Origin: a virus
Lineage: Duplodnaviria > Caudoviricetes
DNA length: 64,000 bases
Direction: 5' to 3' (one strand)
Virus record (IMG/VR): IMGVR_UViG_3300022555_000043
Location: 1 to 64,000 of that record
The notes under the pieces are model-generated. The model saw only the letters and a list, made by a program, of their open reading frames with translations, was not told where the DNA came from and made no database searches. Below are positions 5,403 through 42,126 of this stretch, in pieces. A program made the translations under genes and the position numbers. How positions within the stretch are numbered: the first letter of the stretch is position 1; every line of letters begins with the position of its first letter.

Positions 5403-5708
5403 TCATACAGTCTCCGTCTTGTCGAAACCCATATACTTTATGAGTATATCCAGAGAATCTTTCAATGTAATGAACGCTTCGGAAGCCCCCCCTGCGTCTG
5501 GATGAGTCATTTTTGCCATGATCTTGTAACGGCTGCGGGCCACTTCTTCGGTCAAGATTGCACCTTCGGGGATTCCAAGAATGTCCCGGGCTTTGTCTAC
5601 ATCTTCTTGTGAAGGTCTGTCTGCCAACCGTTCCAGCATCGCCTTGAATCGGGCATGGATTTCTTCCCAGTAGTTGTGTATTCTGGTTCCGAACATATCG
5701 GAATACAT
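5403..5708 (-). CDS. J-domain (DnaJ-like) protein; C-terminal part of a gene split by an in-frame TGA
   Basis: ARDILGI...YKIMAKMTHPDAGG..EAF with HPD motif; same frame as 5757-6089. Confidence 0.8.
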   Translation of the reverse strand: MYSDMFGTRIHNYWEEIHARFKAMLERLADRPSQEDVDKARDILGIPEGAILTEEVARSRYKIMAKMTHPDAGGASEAFITLKDSLDILIKYMGFDKTETV

Positions 5709-5756
5709 TTTTCGTTCCCATTCCTCGTTTTCTTTATGTCTTTGCCAAGTATCATA

Positions 5757-6089
5757 TCACATTGCGTAGTCTCGATCTGTCTTGTACCTGTGTTCGTGTA
5801 CGGCTTTTTTCCAATCGGGGAAATAGAATTTCCTCAAGGGGATAATCTGTGTGGCATAGAAGTACCCCCAAAATTTATCGGCAGAGGGCTTGACGATCTT
5901 GGAACCGTTGAAGATGTTGTTCCATTTCACGTTCAAGGCTGTGACACAGTTTTCGAATGTCACTGTGGTCAGCCGGACTGCCTGCAGCAATGCCCGGAAG
6001 TCATCCATGATATCGGCCACGAATGCATCGCGGTCGAAATAGGGATTCTCATTCAGGTGGTACTTTTCGATGTAGACTTTCGGTTTCAT
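5757..6089 (-). CDS. Hypothetical protein; likely N-terminal part of the J-domain protein
   Basis: ORF with AAGGA RBS; its TGA is followed by 16 open codons into the J-domain ORF. Confidence 0.7.
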   Translation of the reverse strand: MKPKVYIEKYHLNENPYFDRDAFVADIMDDFRALLQAVRLTTVTFENCVTALNVKWNNIFNGSKIVKPSADKFWGYFYATQIIPLRKFYFPDWKKAVHEHRYKTDRDYAM

Positions 6090-28887: not shown

Positions 28888-30099
28888 ATGAGAGTCCCCG
28901 TAACCGGAAAAGTCTTTACCGAAGAAGACAAGCAAGCCCTCATCGACTGTATCAATAGTGGCGAGGAAATAACCTATGGTTCATATAATGTCAAGTTTGA
29001 AAAGATGCTGGCAAAGTATACCGGGGTTTCTCATGCATTCTTTGTGAACTCTGGATCAAGCGCAAATCTATTGGCTTTCGCGGCTTTCACATCCCCCGAC
29101 ATGTACGAGAAATGGCGAGTCCAGCCGGGGGATGAAATCATTACTTTGGCTGCCGGATTCCCTACAACTGTGGCCCCCATTGTCCAGTACGGGTGTGTCC
29201 CCGTATTCGTGGATATTGATCGGGACACGTACAACATAGACATTTCATATTTGGAAGAAGCCAGATCATCCAGAACTAGGGGTGTGTTCATTGCGCACAC
29301 TCTTGGGAACCCCTTTGCCGTAAAGACAGTAAAGGATTTTTGCACTCGTCACAACTTGTTTTTGATCGAAGATGCTTGTGACGCTCTTGGTAGCGAGTAT
29401 GATCATCAGAAGTGTGGCTCCTTCGGAGATGTATCTACCTATTCCTTCTATCCCGCACACCACATCACAACGGGGCAAGGCGGGGCTGTACTGACTTCTG
29501 ACCCACTGATTGCCAAGATTATCCGTTCCATGCGCGGGTGGGGCAAGGAATGCGTGTGCCCACCTAATCAGGATGATGTTTGTGGGCGTCGTTTTACACA
29601 GCAACACGGAAAGTTGCCTTTCGGGTATGACCACAAGTATGTATTCTCTAACTTTGGCTACAACCTTCAGGGTACAAATCTGCTGGCTGCTCTGGGATGT
29701 TCCCAAATGAAGCACATCGAGGAATTCAGTAAGCGCAGGAGAGATAACTTTGAAGTGTTGAAATATGCTCTTCGGAATACCCGGGTCGGTATGATGGAAG
29801 CGTATGCCTCTTCCTATCCTGCGTGGTTTGGCTTCCCAATCCTATTGCCAAATTATCTAATCAGGCGTGACATAGTAAATCAACTATCTGAACGGGGAAT
29901 TGAAACTCGCACATTGTTTGCTGGGAATATAATAAAACAACCTTGCTTTACTAAGAATAGTACAGTGAAATACAGACAGGTGGGGGATTTGTACAACACG
30001 GATTTGGTCATGGATCAAATGTTCTGGACGGGGGTGTGGCATGGACTCAGCCCCGAACAAATAGATTATCTTGCGAAGTCTTTGGTGGAGGTGCTATGA
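28888..30099 (+). CDS. rfbH: CDP-4-keto-6-deoxy-D-glucose 3-dehydratase (E1, RfbH/DdhC family)
   Basis: NSGSSANL, AGFPTTV.P, AHTLGNPF, EDACDALGS, SFYPAHHITTG (His in place of PLP Lys), CxC..C cluster, YDHKY. Confidence 0.93.
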   Translation: MRVPVTGKVFTEEDKQALIDCINSGEEITYGSYNVKFEKMLAKYTGVSHAFFVNSGSSANLLAFAAFTSPDMYEKWRVQPGDEIITLAAGFPTTVAPIVQYGCVPVFVDIDRDTYNIDISYLEEARSSRTRGVFIAHTLGNPFAVKTVKDFCTRHNLFLIEDACDALGSEYDHQKCGSFGDVSTYSFYPAHHITTGQGGAVLTSDPLIAKIIRSMRGWGKECVCPPNQDDVCGRRFTQQHGKLPFGYDHKYVFSNFGYNLQGTNLLAALGCSQMKHIEEFSKRRRDNFEVLKYALRNTRVGMMEAYASSYPAWFGFPILLPNYLIRRDIVNQLSERGIETRTLFAGNIIKQPCFTKNSTVKYRQVGDLYNTDLVMDQMFWTGVWHGLSPEQIDYLAKSLVEVL

Positions 30100-30590
30100 A
30101 CATACCTTCTTCGACATTCGATATAACCCAGTACACCCATTTGCGATACCATGGCAGCTTCATAATCTCAGCTTTCTGCGGTACGGGTAAGACTGACTTC
30201 ACTATCAACCACCCCCATTCCTCAATAGAACGCGAGTGCTGGAAATATCAAACCCCTGACTTCCCTCGTAATTATGTCCGCGCAATAGAAGTTTTTATTG
30301 GGGTCAAACAGTTCATATTTATTAGTACAAACCCCTTATCCCTACACAAGCTAAACACTAAGGGTATCCCTGTACTCATGGTACTGCCTGAATTATCCTT
30401 AAAGGCTGAATACCTCGCACGATTTTTGAGGCGCGGAAGCGATATCAACTTTGTGCAAATGCTGGACAGAAATTGGGAATCGTGGCTCACTGAAGCATAC
30501 AACGAAGAAAATAACCTGCATGTTATTTTGGGTAGTGGAGAATATGTTTCCAATATTCTACATCCTATGACTCTTAGGGGGCTATTATGA
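30096..30590 (+). CDS. Small P-loop NTPase/kinase-like protein
   Basis: IISAFCGTGKT; FPRNY; start moved to ATG 30096. Confidence 0.7.
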   Translation: MNIPSSTFDITQYTHLRYHGSFIISAFCGTGKTDFTINHPHSSIERECWKYQTPDFPRNYVRAIEVFIGVKQFIFISTNPLSLHKLNTKGIPVLMVLPELSLKAEYLARFLRRGSDINFVQMLDRNWESWLTEAYNEENNLHVILGSGEYVSNILHPMTLRGLL

Positions 30591-31582
30591 AACTGCCTAA
30601 TCCGAAATTCTGGGAAGGGAAGCGGGTACTCGTCACTGGTGCTGAAGGCTTCAAAGGCAGGTGGATGGTTCAATGGCTTAGCAAGCTTGGTGCTATAGTT
30701 GAAACCAATGAAACTATAGATATCTGCGATTACGAAGCCATGAAAAACATCATTTTCAAATTCGACCCCGAAATTGTCATCCATATGGCAGCAGTCAGTA
30801 CAGTACAGGAAGCTTTCGAGAATCCTATGGAAGCTATCAGAACCAACGCAATGGGCACAACTACGCTACTGCAAATTCTGAAAATCCACAATATGTGGAG
30901 TAGTGTGAAAGCCATCGTCAATGTAACAACCGATAAAGTATATCATGTTGTTGGGGCAGAACGAGGGTGTGAAGAAACCGATCCTTTGGGCGGTTTGGAA
31001 ATGTATGCTGTAAGCAAAGTCTGTTCCGAACATATCAGCAAGGTGTACCAGAAAACATTTAAGTTACCTATCGTCACTGTCCGGGCTGGAAATGTAATCG
31101 GGGGTGGGGATTTTAAGCGTTCCAGAATAATTCCTAACTACTATTTTGCCCAATTGGAAAACACCCCTCTGGAAATCAATGCCACAGCTATCCGTCCTTG
31201 GCAATACATACTGGATTGCTTATGCGGCTATTTGCTGTTGTGCGAAAAATTATATAATAACGACGCCTATACAGGCGCGTGGAATTTTGCATCCAATGAA
31301 TTCGAAAGCCGTTCTGTAGAATGGATTGTTAAAGAAATGAACAAATATTTTGATCATCCTATAGATATTGCCCGTATCAATTCCAGATTATATTATGAAA
31401 CCAACACTCTTAAATTGAACAGCAGAAAGTCTCACGATGTGTTGCAGTGGACACCCAAATATGATATGCAGGAAATGGTGCGCCGAACGGCAGAGTGGTA
31501 CAGAAATTACATGATGGGGCATAGTGCAGAAGCCTTGAATGAATTCGAAATCAATGCTTATATGAATGAGGGGCAGGAATGA
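30587..31582 (+). CDS. rfbG: CDP-glucose 4,6-dehydratase
   Basis: FWEGKRVLVTG..GFKG.W, TTDKVY, YxxSK, RAGNVIGGGD, RPWQ..LD.L.GY. Confidence 0.93.
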   Translation: MKLPNPKFWEGKRVLVTGAEGFKGRWMVQWLSKLGAIVETNETIDICDYEAMKNIIFKFDPEIVIHMAAVSTVQEAFENPMEAIRTNAMGTTTLLQILKIHNMWSSVKAIVNVTTDKVYHVVGAERGCEETDPLGGLEMYAVSKVCSEHISKVYQKTFKLPIVTVRAGNVIGGGDFKRSRIIPNYYFAQLENTPLEINATAIRPWQYILDCLCGYLLLCEKLYNNDAYTGAWNFASNEFESRSVEWIVKEMNKYFDHPIDIARINSRLYYETNTLKLNSRKSHDVLQWTPKYDMQEMVRRTAEWYRNYMMGHSAEALNEFEINAYMNEGQE

Positions 31583-33363
31583 AAATCGCGGAATACATCG
31601 CCCAAAAACTTCATGAATTAGGGATCACTCAAGTATTCTCCGTTGTTGGTGGGGGAGCGATGCATCTCAATGATGCTTTCGCCAATACTTCGGGGATCAA
31701 TGTCACCTATATGCACCATGAACAGGCATGCTCCATTGCCGCAGAGGGCTATCAGAGAGCCAGTGGCAAGACAGCCTGTGTAGTGGTGACTACAGGCCCG
31801 GGCGGATTGAATACCCTTACGGGGGTTATGGGACAATGGACAGATTCTATCCCAGTCATTTATGTATCGGGACAAGTGAATGAACTTACCACTGTCGAGG
31901 GCACAGGTCGGAGAGAACTGCGCCAACTGGGTGATCAGGAAGTCCATATAATTGATGTAGTCAAACCGTTGACTAAGATGGCTAAAACCTTAGAGAATGA
32001 TAAATATCTTGAATGGAATATTGAGAAGGCATGGTGGTCAGCACATGCTGGGCGACCCGGGCCTGTTTGGTTGAACGTCCCATTAAATGTACAGGGTGCG
32101 GAATTCAAACCTGCCAGTATCCATTATGAACCGCTCCCTCCCAAAGACATGCCGAACGAACATATCGAATTCATTCTTAGTATGATCAACAAAGCAAAAA
32201 GACCATTGATTATAGCGGGGCATGGAATACGGATAGCCAAAGCCTGCGCCGCATTTAAAAGTTTCGCATCCTTTGCAAATATACCTGTCGTTACTACATT
32301 TAATGGATTTGATCTGTTGACATCCAAACATTGGTGCCACATGGGTAACATCACCAACTTAGGTCATCGTGCTGCCAATTTCATATTGCAGAATGCTGAT
32401 GTCATTCTCATTCTTGGAAGCCGAAACAACATTCGGCAAGTCAGTTACAAATGGGAAAACTTCGCTCCCAATGCTATTAAGATGTGCATTGATATAGATA
32501 ATTGGGAATTGCAAAAACCCACCATCCATATACAACATCAATTTCATGCCGATGTGAAATCTTTCTTGACTGGGGCATTAAACCATATGTTCCTGCAACC
32601 TTTAGCCAAACATACAGAATGGTTGGCATGGTGCCAGAAGCTCAAAGAAAAATACCCCATCATGCAAAAGAAGTTTTCCGATGATTCGGATGGGATCAAC
32701 TTGTACACTTTTTTCAATAAAGCTACCAAGAATATAAAACCTCTTACGATTGGGGTGGCAGGAAATGGTAGTGCCTGTGTAGGGTTATTCCAAGCAGGCG
32801 TGGTTACAAATGCATCCCGCTACTTCTGGAATTCTGGTTGTGCTGCAATGGGGTATGCACTTCCTGCAGCAATAGGGGCATCTATAGCAACGAAGCGTCC
32901 TGTGTGGTGTTTCGATGGAGATGGTAGTTTTCAACTCAATATTCAGGAACTCCAAACCATTGTCCAGCATAAACTGAACGTTACCATATTCTATCTCAAT
33001 AATGACGGCTTTTCTTCGATCAAACAAACCCAAGATAATTTCTTTCATAGACGCGCAGGCTGCGATCCTGCTAGTGGGATTACATTTCCTCGTTTGGAAA
33101 GTATTGCCCAAGCTTACGGCATTACGTATATTAAATTGTACAACCATAAAGATGTCGCATATTGGACAAAAATGGACATAAAAGGCCCGATTATCTTTGA
33201 AGTAATGCTCCAAAAGGACTATTCTTTCGAGCCTAAACTAGCACCAAAGATGCTGGAAGATGGTACGATAGTAGCTCCATCATTCGAAAACATGTACCCG
33301 TTTCTTCCCCAAGAAGAAATTGACGCGAATATGATAGGAGGGAAGAATGAAAAACCCGTTTGA
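31579..33363 (+). CDS. Thiamine-diphosphate enzyme (acetolactate-synthase-like / YerE-like)
   Basis: GGGAMHLND, HHEQA, TTGPG, GRPGPVW, GDGSFQLNIQEL..NN. Confidence 0.92.
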   Translation: MKIAEYIAQKLHELGITQVFSVVGGGAMHLNDAFANTSGINVTYMHHEQACSIAAEGYQRASGKTACVVVTTGPGGLNTLTGVMGQWTDSIPVIYVSGQVNELTTVEGTGRRELRQLGDQEVHIIDVVKPLTKMAKTLENDKYLEWNIEKAWWSAHAGRPGPVWLNVPLNVQGAEFKPASIHYEPLPPKDMPNEHIEFILSMINKAKRPLIIAGHGIRIAKACAAFKSFASFANIPVVTTFNGFDLLTSKHWCHMGNITNLGHRAANFILQNADVILILGSRNNIRQVSYKWENFAPNAIKMCIDIDNWELQKPTIHIQHQFHADVKSFLTGALNHMFLQPLAKHTEWLAWCQKLKEKYPIMQKKFSDDSDGINLYTFFNKATKNIKPLTIGVAGNGSACVGLFQAGVVTNASRYFWNSGCAAMGYALPAAIGASIATKRPVWCFDGDGSFQLNIQELQTIVQHKLNVTIFYLNNDGFSSIKQTQDNFFHRRAGCDPASGITFPRLESIAQAYGITYIKLYNHKDVAYWTKMDIKGPIIFEVMLQKDYSFEPKLAPKMLEDGTIVAPSFENMYPFLPQEEIDANMIGGKNEKPV

Positions 33364-34435
33364 AAACCTCTTTGTGTTGGAAATGGCAAACAACCATCTT
33401 GGTAGTGTAGAACGAGGACTGGCTATCATCAATCAATTCGCCCCCATCATTCACTACAACAATGTCAAAGCCGCCATCAAACTTCAATTCAGGGATGTAG
33501 ATCATTTCGTTCATGAAAAATTCAAGGGTAACAAAGATATTCGATACATCAAGAAAACGGAAGATACCCGACTCACCACAGCAGAATACGGTACTTTGGT
33601 ACAGGCTATTCGAAGGGTCGGGGCAATCCCTATGGCAACCCCATTTGATGAAAATTCCGTTGATCTGTGCGTGTCTTTGGGAATGGATATCATCAAGATC
33701 GCCAGTTCCGATATCAACGACTGGTTCCTGCTCAAGAAAATAGCTTCAACACGGTTACCTGTTATAGTGTCTACGGGTGGAGCTTCGGAAAAAGACCTTG
33801 ATGCGATAGTAGATTTCTTCGATAACCGTAGCATTCCCATTGCCATCAACCACTGCGTTTCGCTCTATCCTTCGGAAGATTGGGAATTGGACTTGGATCA
33901 GATCGACTATCTCAAACAGCGGCATCCCGGGCATGTTATTGGCCTATCCACCCATGAATACCATGATTGGGCGGCTTCCATGTTGATTTCCTATGCCAAG
34001 GGTGCCCGTACATGGGAACGGCATGTTGACATTATTACCGATGATGTCACACCCTCTCCCTATTGTTCCATGCCTGCGCAGATAGATGTATGGTTCAAGG
34101 CTTTCCATAAAGCTAGGGAAATGTGTGGTGGGAAAAATATATCCCGGCGTTTCATCCCACAAAAGGAAACGAAGTATCTGGATGCTTTAGTTCGTGGTGT
34201 TTACGCGAAACGGGACTTGGAACCCGGATATGAATTCTCCAATGAAAAAATGACCGATGATTTCTACTTGGCAATTCCCTTGCTGAAAGGTCAGCTTTCC
34301 TGTAGGGAGTTGGTCAATAATGAAGTCTTAGTCAATCCTATCAAAGCCAATGAACCCCTCATGCTTGGACATGTGGGGGGTGTGTATCGAGACAACGAGC
34401 AACTTAGGGCACTAATAATGCAAAGGGGACTCTAA
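33347..34435 (+). CDS. NeuB/SpsE-family PEP-dependent ulosonic acid synthase
   Basis: EMANNH.G, KLQ, TPFDE.SVD, KIAS.D, STGG, HCVS.YP, GLSTHE, ERH, C-terminal RGVYAKRD. Confidence 0.9.
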   Translation: MKNPFENLFVLEMANNHLGSVERGLAIINQFAPIIHYNNVKAAIKLQFRDVDHFVHEKFKGNKDIRYIKKTEDTRLTTAEYGTLVQAIRRVGAIPMATPFDENSVDLCVSLGMDIIKIASSDINDWFLLKKIASTRLPVIVSTGGASEKDLDAIVDFFDNRSIPIAINHCVSLYPSEDWELDLDQIDYLKQRHPGHVIGLSTHEYHDWAASMLISYAKGARTWERHVDIITDDVTPSPYCSMPAQIDVWFKAFHKAREMCGGKNISRRFIPQKETKYLDALVRGVYAKRDLEPGYEFSNEKMTDDFYLAIPLLKGQLSCRELVNNEVLVNPIKANEPLMLGHVGGVYRDNEQLRALIMQRGL

Positions 34436-35106
34436 TGCGGACACTTATTCTTGGTGGAACAGGAGACATCGGCAGTAGTATTTGTTCTAAACTCGAAACC
34501 TTTCTTGGTGCGGATATCCAAGCCGTAGGCAGCGCAGATTTTCGCCTACAGGAGCCTTCAGAGATAGAAAGCTTTTTCAATAAAAACGGCAACGATTTCG
34601 ACACCATTATTCATGCAGCAGGCTATAACAAGGTGCTTCCCATTGAAGATATCGATTATTTTGAATTCCAGTATTCTTGGGAAGCCAACGTACTCGGATT
34701 CTTGCAGACTGTACAAAAATGCCTCCCCTACTGGAAACAACGCAAACATGGACGCATTATAGTTATCGGTTCTTTATATAGCGAGATTGCGCGAAAGAAC
34801 CGCTTACCTTATGTCATGGCGAAGCATTCATTATTCGGGGCTGTACAGGAACTGGCTTTGGAATTGGCCCCTTATGGGGTAACAGTTAATATGGTATCCC
34901 CGGGATATATTGACACTGGACTGACACGCCAGAATAACGATCCCGAAACCTTAGCGGATATTATCTCTCGCATCCCTTTAAAGCGACTGGGAACCCCGGA
35001 AGATATTGCCGAAGTAGTTGCTTTTCTAGCCTACAATGGATATTATATCACAGGACAGAATATCGTTGTAGACGGTGGCTATTCAGCCGGGGGTTTCCAG
35101 AAATGA
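34435..35106 (+). CDS. Short-chain dehydrogenase/reductase
   Basis: GGTGDIG, HAAG, YxxxK, VNMVSPG, P.KRLG.PE, G..I.VDGG. Confidence 0.92.
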   Translation: MRTLILGGTGDIGSSICSKLETFLGADIQAVGSADFRLQEPSEIESFFNKNGNDFDTIIHAAGYNKVLPIEDIDYFEFQYSWEANVLGFLQTVQKCLPYWKQRKHGRIIVIGSLYSEIARKNRLPYVMAKHSLFGAVQELALELAPYGVTVNMVSPGYIDTGLTRQNNDPETLADIISRIPLKRLGTPEDIAEVVAFLAYNGYYITGQNIVVDGGYSAGGFQK

Positions 35107-36248
35107 CGTTTCAAGTGGATGATGTAGAGTTCCCGGTAGACCATGATTGCCTCAGTCCCATTGCATCCATTCCAAAAGAATACAAGGTGCAAATACTCCC
35201 TATTCAAAACATGATTCCGCGAATTACTACAGACATAATTTCTCGCGCCCACCCCGTCATTCTGGTTGATTCTTTCATCTACGATAGATATAATACCTTA
35301 CTACCTTTCGATAAAATCCCCACGTTCCTTATAGAATCAAAGGAACAGAATAAAAATCTCGATTCGGTGTTGGACATCATGCATTTCTTCAATAAACATA
35401 AGGTGACCAAGGGATCAACTGTATACGTCATTGGCGGGGGTATCACTCAAGACCTTGGAGCATTTGCATGTGCTATTTACAAACGAGGTATTCCGTGGGT
35501 GTTTGTACCCACCACCTTGCTTTCCCAAACAGACAGTTGCATTGGTGGCAAAACAGCCCTCAATATTGGGGCTAACAAAAATCTACTGGGCCTGTTTTCC
35601 GCCCCTTCAGAAGTGATTATCTGCCCATATTTTTTAGACACACTACCTATGAATGCCATATACTCAGGTTTAGGAGAAGCTTTCCGACTGAGTATTACGG
35701 GAGGATATGAACTTTTTAAAATGTTTGACCGACACGCCAGATATGTGATAAAAGAAACTGATTTTGTTGCTCTGGAACGCATTATTTCATATGCATTATC
35801 TGTCAAGAAATCCATCATTGAATATGACGAATTTGAAACAAACGTTCGTAAAGTAATGAATTACGGGCACACAATCGGTCATGCTCTGGAAGCCGCAACT
35901 CGATATGAAATTCCCCACGGTATTGCTGTGACAATAGGCATTATGGTAGAAACAGAATTGAGTACCAGATTAAAACAGTGCCCTTCTAATCATCAAGACA
36001 TGATCATTGAACTGGGTTGTGCCCTCGTTCCCGAACAAAAAACGAACATGTTACGAACTATTACAGCGGATATGCTGGTTCCGTTTATTCTCCAAGACAA
36101 AAAAGCTGTCGGAAGTATTATCAAAATGCCTATGTTTTATGGATTCGGAGAAATGCATATTGATGATGTAGAATTTAATGAGGCCACAATGATTGAATTA
36201 CGCCAAGCATGGAATTATGTTTTGTGCCGTTTAGGAGTGCCGGAATGA
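35103..36248 (+). CDS. 3-dehydroquinate-synthase-like sugar phosphate cyclase
   Basis: IGGGITQDLGAF, PTTLLSQ.DS.IGGKT, NYGHTIGHALE, PHG.AV. Confidence 0.9.
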   Translation: MTFQVDDVEFPVDHDCLSPIASIPKEYKVQILPIQNMIPRITTDIISRAHPVILVDSFIYDRYNTLLPFDKIPTFLIESKEQNKNLDSVLDIMHFFNKHKVTKGSTVYVIGGGITQDLGAFACAIYKRGIPWVFVPTTLLSQTDSCIGGKTALNIGANKNLLGLFSAPSEVIICPYFLDTLPMNAIYSGLGEAFRLSITGGYELFKMFDRHARYVIKETDFVALERIISYALSVKKSIIEYDEFETNVRKVMNYGHTIGHALEAATRYEIPHGIAVTIGIMVETELSTRLKQCPSNHQDMIIELGCALVPEQKTNMLRTITADMLVPFILQDKKAVGSIIKMPMFYGFGEMHIDDVEFNEATMIELRQAWNYVLCRLGVPE

Positions 36249-37474
36249 ATGTATTATTGTTGGATTTGGGCGCTAGTAGAATCAAAGCCTGCTTGTATTC
36301 CGCACATAAAGAAGAAATACACATGTCTTGCGAATTTGAGACTCCTCAACCTATGTACCTTCCTAAAGGTAAAGTCGAGGTAGACCCTTATGCATACATC
36401 CCTATTTTAAATGCTATTATAGAACAGGCACAACCATTTGGCATAGATCGAATGTGGTTGTGTTCCGAAATGCACGGAGTAATTCTTTTGGATGGCGACA
36501 ACCATCCCATTACCAACTACATCAGTTGGAAAGATTCTCGTGGTTCCACTAAAGGAATCGACGCATCCATATTTAAAAACATAACTGGAATGACCGTACA
36601 TCAAGGATTACCAATTCTCACAATAAGGTATATGTGCAAACATAAACAGCTACCCGAAACATTCCGTATGTGTTCTTTAATTGACTGGTTGTTGATTGAA
36701 TATGGTAATGATGTAGCTGCAGCAAATGCTACTATGCTATTAGGCACAGGATTGTACGGGCTACACTCACAGGCGTATGCCCCATATCTATTCCACATGA
36801 TGGGCATTAAATGTAGTCAGATCAAATCCTCTCCCATAGTCCCTCTTGGCACTCGTCTAGGATTGATTCGCGGAATTCCTGTTTATGGTGGTATAGGAGA
36901 TTTGCAAGCCGCAATTGCTGGATCAGTGCAAATAAATCATAACATCCTTATTAACTTGGGAACAGGATCGCAAATCATAACGCCTCAGCAGATAGGCTCT
37001 CCTTTTACGGAACTTCGCCTTGGTGCGAGAAATGAATGTTTTTCCGCAATCACGCACATTCCTTGTGGAAGAGCATTAAATGTTTTCGCTAAGTTCATAG
37101 GGGAAGAATTATTTTGGAAATGTATGCCTGACTTGGAACCGAAGAATATTTTAGCCGCTAGTATAGGAGTAGGTTTGGATGTTGGTTCTGGGCAGGGTGT
37201 CATATATCATATCAAGGAAGGAGAATTTAATCTCAATAATCTCATGCATGGTATTGCATTAAGTTGGCTAAAGCAATATACTGATCGAATAGAGACAGTT
37301 GACCCCTTGTGTCAATGCCCAACTATATATGTGGCAGGAGGTCTAAGCCGCAAATTACCATTTGTGGTTCCTGTGTTGGAAGCATTAACGAATAGGCAGG
37401 TTGGTTTAGTGCGCCCAATGACTGGCGAAGAAACCCTTGATGGTCTGCTGTTTTTGGCAAAGGAGAATATGTGA
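36245..37474 (+). CDS. FGGY-family carbohydrate kinase (sedoheptulokinase-like)
   Basis: LDLGASRIK, EMHG, ISWKD.RG, GIGDLQAA, INLGTGSQI, AGG. Confidence 0.8.
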   Translation: MNVLLLDLGASRIKACLYSAHKEEIHMSCEFETPQPMYLPKGKVEVDPYAYIPILNAIIEQAQPFGIDRMWLCSEMHGVILLDGDNHPITNYISWKDSRGSTKGIDASIFKNITGMTVHQGLPILTIRYMCKHKQLPETFRMCSLIDWLLIEYGNDVAAANATMLLGTGLYGLHSQAYAPYLFHMMGIKCSQIKSSPIVPLGTRLGLIRGIPVYGGIGDLQAAIAGSVQINHNILINLGTGSQIITPQQIGSPFTELRLGARNECFSAITHIPCGRALNVFAKFIGEELFWKCMPDLEPKNILAASIGVGLDVGSGQGVIYHIKEGEFNLNNLMHGIALSWLKQYTDRIETVDPLCQCPTIYVAGGLSRKLPFVVPVLEALTNRQVGLVRPMTGEETLDGLLFLAKENM

Positions 37475-38124
37475 ATTACCGATTGTATATCAAAACTATG
37501 TTTTCCGTCATCAAAGCATACGGTGTAAACATTCCGATAATGGATAAAGCAGGAGTAGGATATGGGCATTTGGAAGCCATAACCTATGACTACAAATATA
37601 GTCGCCCGTGGCTACCAAAATTGCTGGGCGATTGGAGAAGGGCAAACCCTTCATTATCAGCCAGTCAATTCGAAATCACCGAAGCCAACACGACAGCATG
37701 GTTGGATAAACTTGTACTGTTCCGACCTGACCGAATCCTGTTCATGATCATTGATAATGAAGGAAACCAGATAGGGCATATAGGATACTCCTCATTTGAT
37801 TTCGAACATGGAACTGCCGAAATAGATTGTGTTCTAAGGGGTCAGAAAACCCCATATCCTATGATGACGTATGCACTGGACTGTTTAATAAAATATGGAT
37901 ATGATAAACTAAAATTGAGGATCATCAATCTTTCGACAATGGCAGACAATACAAAATCTACACAACTCTACCAACGATGCGGTTTCAAAATCATGAGGGA
38001 CATCCCTTTATTCAAGCACACACTTCCGACAGGGGAGATTCGTTGGGACGAAGACCTTACAAAAAATTCAAGCGAAACAGATAAATGGGGTGTATACATG
38101 TGCCATATTAAGGAGTCAACATGA
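37471..38124 (+). CDS. GNAT (RimJ/RimL-like) N-acetyltransferase
   Basis: QIGHIG, AEID.VLRG, N.KS..LYQRCGF; GTG start coupled to upstream stop. Confidence 0.8.
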   Translation: MNYRLYIKTMFSVIKAYGVNIPIMDKAGVGYGHLEAITYDYKYSRPWLPKLLGDWRRANPSLSASQFEITEANTTAWLDKLVLFRPDRILFMIIDNEGNQIGHIGYSSFDFEHGTAEIDCVLRGQKTPYPMMTYALDCLIKYGYDKLKLRIINLSTMADNTKSTQLYQRCGFKIMRDIPLFKHTLPTGEIRWDEDLTKNSSETDKWGVYMCHIKEST

Positions 38125-39233
38125 ACAAGAAGATCAGTTTTGCAGGCCCATGGATTACCGACAAAGAGATAGACTTCGTACTGGAAGCTGCCCGGGACGG
38201 GCATTACGAAATCTTCGACAAGTACATCAAGAATTTCGAAGCGGAAGCCCGAAAGTATTTTGGTGTCAAGTATGCCATAGGCACCCACTGCGCAACACAT
38301 GCCCTGCATCTTGCCTGTGCCGCTATTGGATTGAAGAAGGGCGATGAAGTGATTGTCACCGATCACAGTTGGTCGGCCACAGCCTTTGCCGTCACCTATA
38401 CGGGTGCTACCTGCATCTTTGTGGATATTGATCCTGTCACACTGTGTATCTCCCCTGACGCTATCGAAGCGGCAATTACTCCCCAAACCAAAGCTATCAT
38501 GATGGTACACAATTTCGGAGTTCCTGCAGATATGGTGGAAATCATGTCTATTGCACAGAAATACAACCTTCGTGTCATCGAAGATGCCGCGCCCGCATTA
38601 GGTTCCTTGTACTACGGTCAAAAATGCGGAACCATTGGAGATGTCGGCTGCATCAGTTTCCAAGGAGCGAAAATAGCGATCAGCCAAGAAGGTGGCCTGC
38701 TCATCACCAATAATAAGGAAATCTATGATCGTGCATTGCTTCTTTCTTCTATGGGACGCACAGACAGCGAAGCCCCTTTCTGGTGCGATGAAGTAGGATT
38801 TCAGTATACCATTGGGAGCCTTCCTTCCGCTATGGCAACCATCCAGTTACAGCGGATTGACGAATTGATTGACAACAAACGCAAAATCTATTCGTGGTAC
38901 AAAGCTCGTTTGGAAGATAGCATATATTGCCATATGGTGCATGAAAAACCGGGAACCTTTGCCAACTACACGTATCCTTCCATCTGGCTGTATGATCATG
39001 TCGGAAAATCCAATACGCGAATCATTGCCGAATTGAAAACCCTGAATGTCCATTGCAGGCCGGGATTCCCCCCTATGAGCCGCTTCCCAATGTACAAAGA
39101 CGATCAGCGGTTTGAAAACCCCGTAGCCTACAAATTCTGGAAACGTGGAATTGTGCTTCCTGCAGCGCACAACCTTGTCAGGGAAGACATTGATTTTGTC
39201 TGTGATAACCTTAACCGTATTGTAAGGGGGTGA
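38121..39233 (+). CDS. DegT/DnrJ/EryC1/StrS sugar aminotransferase (perosamine-synthase-like)
   Basis: ALHLA, GDEVI, IEDAA.ALG, SFQGAK PLP lysine, EGG, RPGFPP. Confidence 0.93.
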   Translation: MNKKISFAGPWITDKEIDFVLEAARDGHYEIFDKYIKNFEAEARKYFGVKYAIGTHCATHALHLACAAIGLKKGDEVIVTDHSWSATAFAVTYTGATCIFVDIDPVTLCISPDAIEAAITPQTKAIMMVHNFGVPADMVEIMSIAQKYNLRVIEDAAPALGSLYYGQKCGTIGDVGCISFQGAKIAISQEGGLLITNNKEIYDRALLLSSMGRTDSEAPFWCDEVGFQYTIGSLPSAMATIQLQRIDELIDNKRKIYSWYKARLEDSIYCHMVHEKPGTFANYTYPSIWLYDHVGKSNTRIIAELKTLNVHCRPGFPPMSRFPMYKDDQRFENPVAYKFWKRGIVLPAAHNLVREDIDFVCDNLNRIVRG

Positions 39234-39234
39234 T

Positions 39235-39951
39235 ATGACCTACAACTTCCGCATCTACATCTCATTTGCCAGAAATATGGAACTGCTGAACAAATGCATT
39301 GATTCCGTAGTTCCCCAAATAAGGGAATTTTCTACATGGAAAGGTAAGAAAATCGTAGTGATCAATGATTCCGGGGAAGACATCCGTGGACAATGCCACT
39401 TTCCCGATGAAGTTGAAATCTACGAAATGCCCTATCGAATCAAACTCAGTCCCGCCATTATGGGAGATTGGGTTGTAAAGGATGCCTTCTACACCAATCA
39501 GCCGTTCGCCATGACCCTACATACCGATGCCGAACTGTTGCCCGGAGCAATGAAGGATATCCTCGATAAAGCCAAGGAGATAGAAGGAACCAAATGGGGA
39601 ATGCTCTTCGGTGGTGCTGGATGGCAAGTATTCGCCCTTTATAACCCACGCTTCTTTGTGGATGAAAATGTCTGGCATGATCCCTATCTCTTCCCTTTCT
39701 ACTATCAGGATAACCACCTCTACAGGATCATGACCCTGAGAGGGTGGTATGTAACACAATCTGATTCAAAAATCCCCACTATTATCCACAAAAGTAGCCA
39801 TTATCTCAAAGAAGACCCTATCTTTAAACGCAAAAATGATATAGCATTCCCAGCACATGGTTGGATTTACGCACAGATTTGGGGAGGCTTGCCCGGGTAT
39901 GAAACATCTGTCGATCCCTACGCAGCGGGCACGTTGCCGAAAAAGGTCTGA
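39235..39951 (+). CDS. GT-A fold (GT2-like) glycosyltransferase
   Basis: VVINDS, HTD, YYQDN, WGG.PG.E motifs. Confidence 0.7.
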   Translation: MTYNFRIYISFARNMELLNKCIDSVVPQIREFSTWKGKKIVVINDSGEDIRGQCHFPDEVEIYEMPYRIKLSPAIMGDWVVKDAFYTNQPFAMTLHTDAELLPGAMKDILDKAKEIEGTKWGMLFGGAGWQVFALYNPRFFVDENVWHDPYLFPFYYQDNHLYRIMTLRGWYVTQSDSKIPTIIHKSSHYLKEDPIFKRKNDIAFPAHGWIYAQIWGGLPGYETSVDPYAAGTLPKKV

Positions 39952-39954
39952 CAC

Positions 39955-40743
39955 ATGATCTGCGAATGTTTCTACTTCTGGAACGAACTCGACCTCTTGG
40001 ATGCCAAACTTCACGAACATAGTGGAGTAGTGGATCGGTTCGTCCTATTGGAATTCCCAACATCCTTACGGCATATCCCACAACGTCTGCAATATGAGGA
40101 GAACAAAGAAAGATTCAAAGAATTTCAAGACAAGATATTCCATATCGTAGGCCCAAACGATCATCCAGAATTGTACGGGCTGAATTTATTGTTCGCCAGA
40201 CATAAGAATTATCTCACTGGATTGGCAGATTGCGCTCCCAATGACATCATCATCCTATCTTCTCCTGATGTGATATGGAAAGCCTCTACGCTGGAACAAT
40301 TGAAAACAATAGACATGGAAAATTCCAGTGTTCAATTCGTTGCCGATTGGTATAGTTACTACATGGATTTTTTCTGCACCGAAATTAAATATGATTTTGA
40401 TGGGGCTTGTCTATACAAACATCTGAAATACCACAATTCAAACAATCGCCCCCTCATTCCTGTAGGAACCAGAATTACCGATGCGGGATGACATTTCTCC
40501 CATCTTGGTGGTGTGGATAAAATACTTGCTAATCTTCATGGGCACCCACACACGGAAATGGATAATGAGATAACCCGAGACAGGGCTACTATGATCATGA
40601 AAATGGGACAAGGATTTGCTTGGGGAGCGAGTGGGGGATATAGAAAGGTAATGCAGTATGTACCTCGCAACCCACAAAACTATCCCGCTTACATCAACGA
40701 CCATCCCGAAATCTTCGGAAAATATTTCAGGAACAAGGAGTAG
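39955..40743 (+). pseudogene. GT17-like (beta-1,4-GlcNAc transferase family) glycosyltransferase with one in-frame TGA at 40489-40491 (nonsense allele or readthrough)
   Basis: CF.FWNELDLL..LHE..VVD.FV..E, DIIILS..D; DAG*HFSHLGG where homologues read GWHFS. Confidence 0.8.
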
Positions 40744-40746
40744 ACA

Positions 40747-42126
40747 ATGAAGACTAAGGTTCTGTGCTGGCTTGATTCTCCCACCTGTGCAACAGGTTTC
40801 GGACAGGTCGCCAACAATGTCCTGAAGCGACTTTATGCCACGGGACTGTATGAATTCGACATCATAGGGATCAACCATGCGGGCGATCCTTACGACACCA
40901 CTCAGTACCCCTATCGCATCTTTCCCGCAGTTGCCCCTCTTTCTGGGGATGACAAGATGCGCACGGATGTGTATGGATTCCAAAAGATGCTGTTGTTCGC
41001 TGGTATGGGGCGCTACGATATCGTGTTCATCCTCAATGACACCTTCGTCATCAACGCTATTATAAAACCCCTTCTTGAAGCACAACAGAAGATGCCCAAG
41101 GACAAGAAATTCGAAATCATCACGTACTTCCCTGTCGATTCTCCTCTCAAGAAAGAATGGGTAGACAACGTGGTATCTTCCATTTCATTCCCGGTCACTT
41201 ACACCAACTACGCTTTCAAGGAATGCCTCAAACACGACCCCGGACTCAGCAAGAACCTCAAAGTCGTTTACCATGGAGTAGACAAAAACATTTTCTTCCC
41301 CATAGGAGAACCTGCCAAATTGAAGAGGGAAATCCTTGGGCCAGATCACTGCCAGAAATACGTTGTTCTCAATGTAAACCGCAACCAGCCCAGAAAAGAC
41401 CTGCACAGGACATTTGCAGGCTTCAAGATTTTCCATGAAAAGTACCCCAACACCCTACTGTTCATTCTGGCACAATCGCAGGATGTGGGAGGCGATCTGA
41501 TGGAAATTGCCAAGAGTTATGGCTTGGTTTGGGACAAAGATTGGGTTTGTCCTGCCCCGGGAAGCTATGGTGCCAACCAAGGCTATCCTATTGCAGTAGT
41601 CAATAAAATCTACAATGCTGCCGATGTCGTCATTTCCAGCACTCTGGGCGAAGGATGGGGACTGAGTATTTCCGAAGCCTTCGCTACCATCAAACCCGCT
41701 ATTTTCCCCGACAACACCAGCCTCCATGAAATCATTGGGGAAAATTCGGAACGTGGTTGGTTCATCAAATCCGGGGAAGACCTCGACCATTTCACCTGCC
41801 TTGGATCGGCTGACAACAACCAAGTTCGCCCAACCATCAACGTCTTCTCTCTGGCCGATCAACTGGAATATGTATACACCCATCCTGAAGAAGCGCAGGC
41901 CAAAGCAGAGAGGGCGTATAGTGAAGTATGGGTTTGGGATGACCTGTGCAAGACTTGGGCCGAAATATTCGCTCAAGCCAGCAAGAAAGTAGTTACCATG
42001 CGCTCGGACATCAAAGTTGAACGCAACGCCCCGTGTCCTTGTGGTTCGGGCGAGAAGTGGAAGCATTGCTGCGGAGCTTCCTACGTACGATCTGCCACTG
42101 GGGAACTCAAAAAGATTGTAGATTAG
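40747..42126 (+). CDS. GT-B (GT4-like) glycosyltransferase with C-terminal SEC-C motif
   Basis: DSP..ATGF..V, YHGVD, NRNQPRK, YNAADV, GEGWGL...EA; tail [17 protein letters not shown]. Confidence 0.9.

Follow-up and report, generated by a model that had tools for sequence, protein, structure and literature searches.

A TGA at a conserved tryptophan codon of a phage GT17-family glycosyltransferase gene is probably a lineage-specific nonsense allele

The window analysed here is the first 64 kb of a 75,397-bp virus record that was assembled from a metagenome. The record is complete (75.4 kb, with 91-bp direct terminal repeats) and looks like the genome of an uncultured freshwater, siphovirus-like phage, in which a 1,824-aa tape-measure protein, a family-A DNA polymerase and SNF2 and DnaB helicases are encoded together with gp32-like and RecA-like proteins and SbcCD. 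A co-directional run of sugar-metabolism genes at 28888-42126 constitutes a 13-kb glycan island, whose products include two DegT-type enzymes, a 4,6-dehydratase-like enzyme, a ThDP enzyme, a NeuB-like enzyme, an SDR, a DHQS-like enzyme, an FGGY kinase and a GNAT. Toward the 3′ end of the island, a DegT-type aminotransferase gene recognized by Pfam (38121-39233, + strand) is followed by a gene for a 238-aa protein without a Pfam match (39235-39951, +), by a GT17-like gene (39955-40743, +) and by a gene for a group-1 glycosyltransferase with a C-terminal SEC-C motif (40747-42126, +; PF00534 and PF02810, phrog_2170). The last three genes of the island (39235-42126, +) share one reading frame and are separated only by TGA-CAC-ATG and then by TAG-ACA-ATG; like the premature stop described below, the stop of the 238-aa gene is a TGA followed by C.

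The GT17-like gene begins at the ATG at 39955 and runs for 178 codons to a TGA at 40489-40491, beyond which 83 further codons lead to a TAG at 40741-40743. Positions 40480-40512 read GAT GCG GGA TGA CAT TTC TCC CAT CTT GGT GGT, corresponding to RITDAG-stop-HFSHLGG, so that the premature TGA is codon 179 and occupies the tryptophan of the motif G-W-H-F-S. The main expected product is the truncated 178-aa ORF at 39955-40491 (+), which is recorded exactly as protein P0004, and the open, family-like stretch of 83 codons at 40492-40743 (+) would be translated only upon read-through. When the frame is read through, the protein matches PF04724 (Glyco_transf_17) with 54.7 bits (E 1.1e-14; gathering cut-off 26 bits) over residues 5-183, that is, across the stop, and by profile and motif the gene at 39955-40743 is thus predicted to be a member of the GT17 family. 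The sequence and its translation bear out the preliminary description of the locus, which had reported a single in-frame TGA inside a GT17-like gene whose frame stays open to 40743. That description had also drawn attention to the C after the TGA (TGA C at 40489-40492), a context in which weak termination is documented in bacteria (PMC5289835), although the host of this phage is not known to be E. coli. TGA-C also ends six other ORFs in a crude, greedily chosen ORF set.

Relatives of the gene are numerous. A protein search of 5.8 billion clusters returned 252 GT17 relatives; among the matches listed, most are 250-300 aa long, all carry PF04724, and the closest show 77, 69, 69 and 52% identity over their whole length, the closest full-length relatives being proteins of 258-263 aa at 52-77% identity. 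GT17 genes are common in IMG/VR, where 270 viral loci were matched. The DNA of the nearest relatives was recovered by a metagenome scan, and 103 related loci were gathered from metagenomes and IMG/VR, 102 of which cover the site. The codon aligned to the TGA is TGG in the two nearest relatives, L002 (77% identity) and L003 (74%), and TAT in L004. Across the 102 loci the aligned residue is Trp in 100 and Tyr in two, as it is Trp in the closest proteins, and an internal stop occurs in none (0/102). The claim that the UGA falls at the conserved Trp of GWHFS therefore stands, and the codon state in related genomes, which the preliminary description had proposed to compare, is that of an intact gene; the possibility raised there that homologues have no Trp at this place or are naturally split does not hold among the 102 loci, none of which is split. 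The stop is flanked by Gly178 and His180, and G178, H180, G185 and G186 are invariant among 14 aligned sequences.

The surroundings of the gene are also conserved. L002 and L003 have the same order of DegT gene, 238-aa gene and GT17 gene, with 72-81% amino-acid identity, and L025 carries the 238-aa gene and the GT17 gene with the GT1/SEC-C gene further downstream. Because this order is kept in relatives, the GT17 gene is regarded as a normal, intact member of the module elsewhere. The module of DegT gene, 238-aa gene and GT17 gene was thus seen in other uncultured phage contigs (L002, L003 and L025) at 39-81% identity. In L002, the end of the 238-aa gene and the start of the GT17 gene both lie at 1753, which suggests a one-base overlap of genes in different frames, and therefore no conserved fusion of the 238-aa protein and GT17 is implied by the shared frame in the window. 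In the viral contig set, neither a close GT17 gene nor a match to the 32-mer around the site in either codon state was found, and the flanking GT1 and SbcC genes had no close relatives there.

The truncated product is recorded repeatedly. JGI/IMG, Logan and ENA together contribute 15 contigs that encode the exact 178-aa protein, and these may stem from overlapping read sets. The neighbouring genes are found on 13-16 contigs, each as one sequence; the few variant entries for these neighbours are start-codon differences or one amino-acid change. No TGG allele of this phage's GT17 gene exists in the 5.8-billion-cluster protein collection, where the best full-length relative is the one at 77%. All recorded assemblies thus carry the TGA allele, which, on this reading, is fixed in a near-clonal population; a minority TGG allele may accompany the assembled TGA.

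Comparison with the nearest relatives bears on the age of the interruption. Amino-acid identity to L002 is 79.5% after the stop and 77% before it. After the stop, pN is 0.092 between the window and L003 and no different, at 0.091, between the two intact genes, and the GT17 gene and its flanking genes are equally similar to L002 and L003. The 83 downstream codons contain no further stop, no frameshift and no extra divergence. At sites invariant among the six closest relatives, the window has five private changes, of which four are conservative and one is Y3C; the three nearest relatives have 0-3 such changes each. Saturation of synonymous sites (pS > 0.8 against the nearest relatives) makes a dN/dS comparison of the two parts unusable, and only amino acids were compared. 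On these comparisons the nonsense mutation looks recent. The conserved downstream part fits a recent mutation and, equally, continued use of the whole frame, and it is therefore not decisive between the two.

The AlphaFold2 model of the read-through protein (pLDDT 91, pTM 0.89) places residue 179 within a strand at residues 170-182, after which helices extend to residue 257. Foldseek relates this model to GT-A glycosyltransferases and nucleotidyltransferases with probability 1.0 and TM-scores of only 0.35-0.45, and a sequence search returned no solved GT17 structure. The 178-aa product ends in the middle of the strand 170-182 and is without the invariant residues H180, G185, G186 and P244. This fragment is probably inactive, because it would lack part of a core strand of the model, His180, the two adjacent glycines and all of the C-terminal helices.

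The phage uses the standard genetic code. TGA is its commonest stop and ends 47 of 91 greedily chosen ORFs, several adjacent genes have four-base overlaps at TGA stops, and coding density is almost unchanged when TGA is taken as a sense codon. A search for a UCA-anticodon tRNA, which the preliminary description had recommended, found none in the complete genome; ARAGORN, run on the whole genome, and Rfam, run on the window, detect a single tRNA, Gln(UUG). An alternative code or a suppressor tRNA was accordingly rejected on the prevalence of TGA as a stop, the lack of a UCA tRNA and the coding density. The 121-nt segment at 40480-40600 has a folding energy of -25 kcal/mol, whereas its shuffled versions average -27.3 (z +0.71), which gives no sign of a stimulatory structure in this segment, and Rfam reports nothing at E <= 10 within 40300-40800, so that neither a SECIS nor another known recoding element follows the stop. 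Selenocysteine was ruled out by this lack of a SECIS in Rfam and by the Trp or Tyr at the site in GT17 homologues.

Only one other in-frame TGA was found in the genome. It lies at 5757-5759 in a gene for a J-domain protein (5403-6089, - strand), as seen in translation, is followed by T, and separates a 110-aa N-terminal part from the J-domain. An exhaustive HMMER search returned 224 homologues of this protein. Each of the 23 full-length homologues taken into the alignment is a single ORF; in the closest of them, in which this region is well aligned, the site holds Arg or Lys. Shorter homologues terminate elsewhere. DNA of a homologue was not found in the viral contig set. The J-domain TGA is, as judged from these proteins, an unshared, lineage-specific premature stop, and because the family residue is Arg or Lys, insertion of Trp would not restore it. 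Seven other candidates for split genes, same-frame or neighbouring, showed no domain crossing a stop in a Pfam scan, and a crude codon-usage scan for in-frame stops was dropped because it recovered neither of the two TGA cases. Both premature TGAs would result from a G-to-A change on the + strand, TGG to TGA in the GT17 gene and probably CGA to TGA on the minus strand in the J-domain gene. From the codon counts of this genome, TGA accounts for 29% of nonsense transitions, and the probability that two of two are TGA is ~0.08 under a transitions-only model. This hints, weakly, that the phage tolerates no premature stop but the leakiest, although with two cases it may be due to chance. A second unshared premature TGA is also what would be expected from mutational decay.

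These observations are probably best explained by a recent, lineage-specific TGG-to-TGA nonsense allele that acts as a knock-out or strong knock-down, the site not being one of programmed recoding. A single G-to-A transition would have converted TGG to TGA in an accessory GT17 gene of the glycan island; most ribosomes would then stop at codon 179 and release the 178-aa fragment, most likely inactive, while misreading of UGA-C by the near-cognate tRNA-Trp might, by extrapolation from E. coli data, still supply a few percent of exact wild-type GT17. The recent allele would have become fixed in the near-clonal population. TGG to TGA is the mildest possible nonsense change, because misreading by tRNA-Trp restores the wild-type residue, and this mildness may explain the fixation. 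An error in sequencing or assembly, with G as the true base, would be conceivable in a record that is itself a metagenome assembly; it is unlikely, because the truncated product was called identically on 15 contigs in three independent assembly collections and no full-length allele nearer than 77% is present in the protein collection, and with the matching contig counts of the neighbouring genes the chance that the codon is really TGG appears very small. That UGA is a sense codon, whether because the host is recoded (code 4 or 25), because a suppressor tRNA acts or because selenocysteine is inserted, would make two genes whole at once; this is highly improbable in a complete genome without a UCA-anticodon tRNA, in which TGA ends about half of the genes, four-base overlaps included, in which no SECIS is present, and whose homologues carry Trp at one site and Arg or Lys at the other rather than Cys, selenocysteine or Gly. 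Least credible is an enzyme in two pieces, in which termination at the UGA would be followed by re-initiation at the in-frame GTG at 40513, seven codons past the stop, and assembly of the 178-aa piece with a 76-aa piece. A restart at this GTG would omit HFSHLGG, including the invariant H180, G185 and G186, and the two-piece enzyme is therefore rejected; moreover, by eye nothing upstream of the GTG at a workable spacing looks clearly like a ribosome-binding site, the break would fall inside a beta-strand of the AlphaFold2 model, and split relatives number 0/102.

The nonsense allele has also to be weighed against the reading in which the UGA is a selected hypomorph or a programmed read-through site, at which tRNA-Trp would provide a small, tuned dose of GT17 and hence partial or heterogeneous glycosylation. 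Several observations are compatible with such a site: bacterial termination is weak at a UGA with C next to it (PMC5289835), premature TGA codons in E. coli are read mostly as Trp, at hot spots typically at 0.7-6% (PMC11126739), the frame beyond the stop is intact and its protein sequence well conserved, the allele is fixed across all recorded assemblies, and the second premature stop of the genome is likewise TGA. Against it, the stop is found in 0/102 relatives and the closest of them carry TGG, a downstream RNA structure or known element is absent from the segments searched, and the other TGA lies at an Arg/Lys site, where insertion of Trp would restore nothing. Because the population is clonal, fixation is uninformative about selection, and nothing indicates selection for a leak at the UGA; a selected or programmed site is accordingly considered unlikely. 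The preliminary description had offered the two readings side by side, and the comparison separates them: the TGG-to-TGA knockout allele is favoured by TGG in the nearest relatives, by the stop in none of the 102 loci and by the TGA in all assemblies, whereas programmed Trp read-through has the UGA-C context in its favour but is left without conservation, structure or a UCA tRNA. The more specific proposal that UGA-C serves as a selected 'dimmer', by which a few percent of exact GT17 would place the sugar on only part of the phage-made glycan, is rather unlikely. If it were true, the UGA of the J-domain gene, taken together with it, would mean that this phage and its host tolerate or exploit unusually leaky UGA termination.

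On sequence grounds the site falls outside the class of programmed read-through, because conservation of the stop, the defining feature of that class, was tested and the stop proved to be confined to this lineage. Leaky UGA alleles of E. coli (PMC11126739) resemble it in that a premature TGA lies at a Trp codon and misreading by tRNA-Trp restores the wild-type residue, although their rates come from K-12, which has a weak RF2 allele, and may not apply to the host of this phage. The phage GT17 gene is probably an accessory gene that an ordinary nonsense mutation has broken or, at most, left leaky. In the coat gene of phage Q-beta, a UGA is decoded as Trp by a host tRNA to give the longer A1 protein as a minority product. 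The likeness to A1 is that a UGA in a phage gene would, if decoded as Trp, give a minority of longer product. In Q-beta, however, the stop is conserved, the protein that it terminates is complete and functional, and the extension brings a further function, whereas the stop in the phage GT17 gene lies inside the predicted catalytic domain, occurs in one lineage only and leaves a short product without invariant residues.

The type member of GT17 (PF04724) is the animal enzyme MGAT3/GnT-III. The phage protein resembles the family in its Pfam match above the cut-off and its G-W-H-F-S...G-G motif, and its predicted fold may be of the GT-A type. Bacteria and viruses commonly have short members of the family, 250-300 aa in length; compared with animal GT17, the phage copy is short, soluble-looking and interrupted. 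In annotation, the proper label for the gene is a GT17-family pseudogene or nonsense allele, and not two small ORFs or a recoding site, and the glycan island is best taken as one that probably lacks the GT17 transferase step. The locus may also be useful as a negative control in scans for programmed UGA read-through, since it combines the same motif, a leaky context and an open downstream frame with a stop that is not conserved. Were the minority reading true, the locus would be a natural case in which a leaky stop codon controls how much of a glycan-modifying enzyme a tailed phage makes.

Some further features of the window lie apart from the glycan island. A lone type I-C-like CRISPR repeat at 16023-16054 had no exact or loop-degenerate match in two scans of GTDB with one genome per species. 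The gene at 23842-24759 (+), directly after the DNA polymerase gene, encodes a deoxynucleotide monophosphate kinase domain together with DUF4406, a nucleoside 2-deoxyribosyltransferase-like domain. The family-A DNA polymerase itself (21262-23841, +) carries an N-terminal domain of the uracil-DNA-glycosylase superfamily (PF03167) at residues 86-180.
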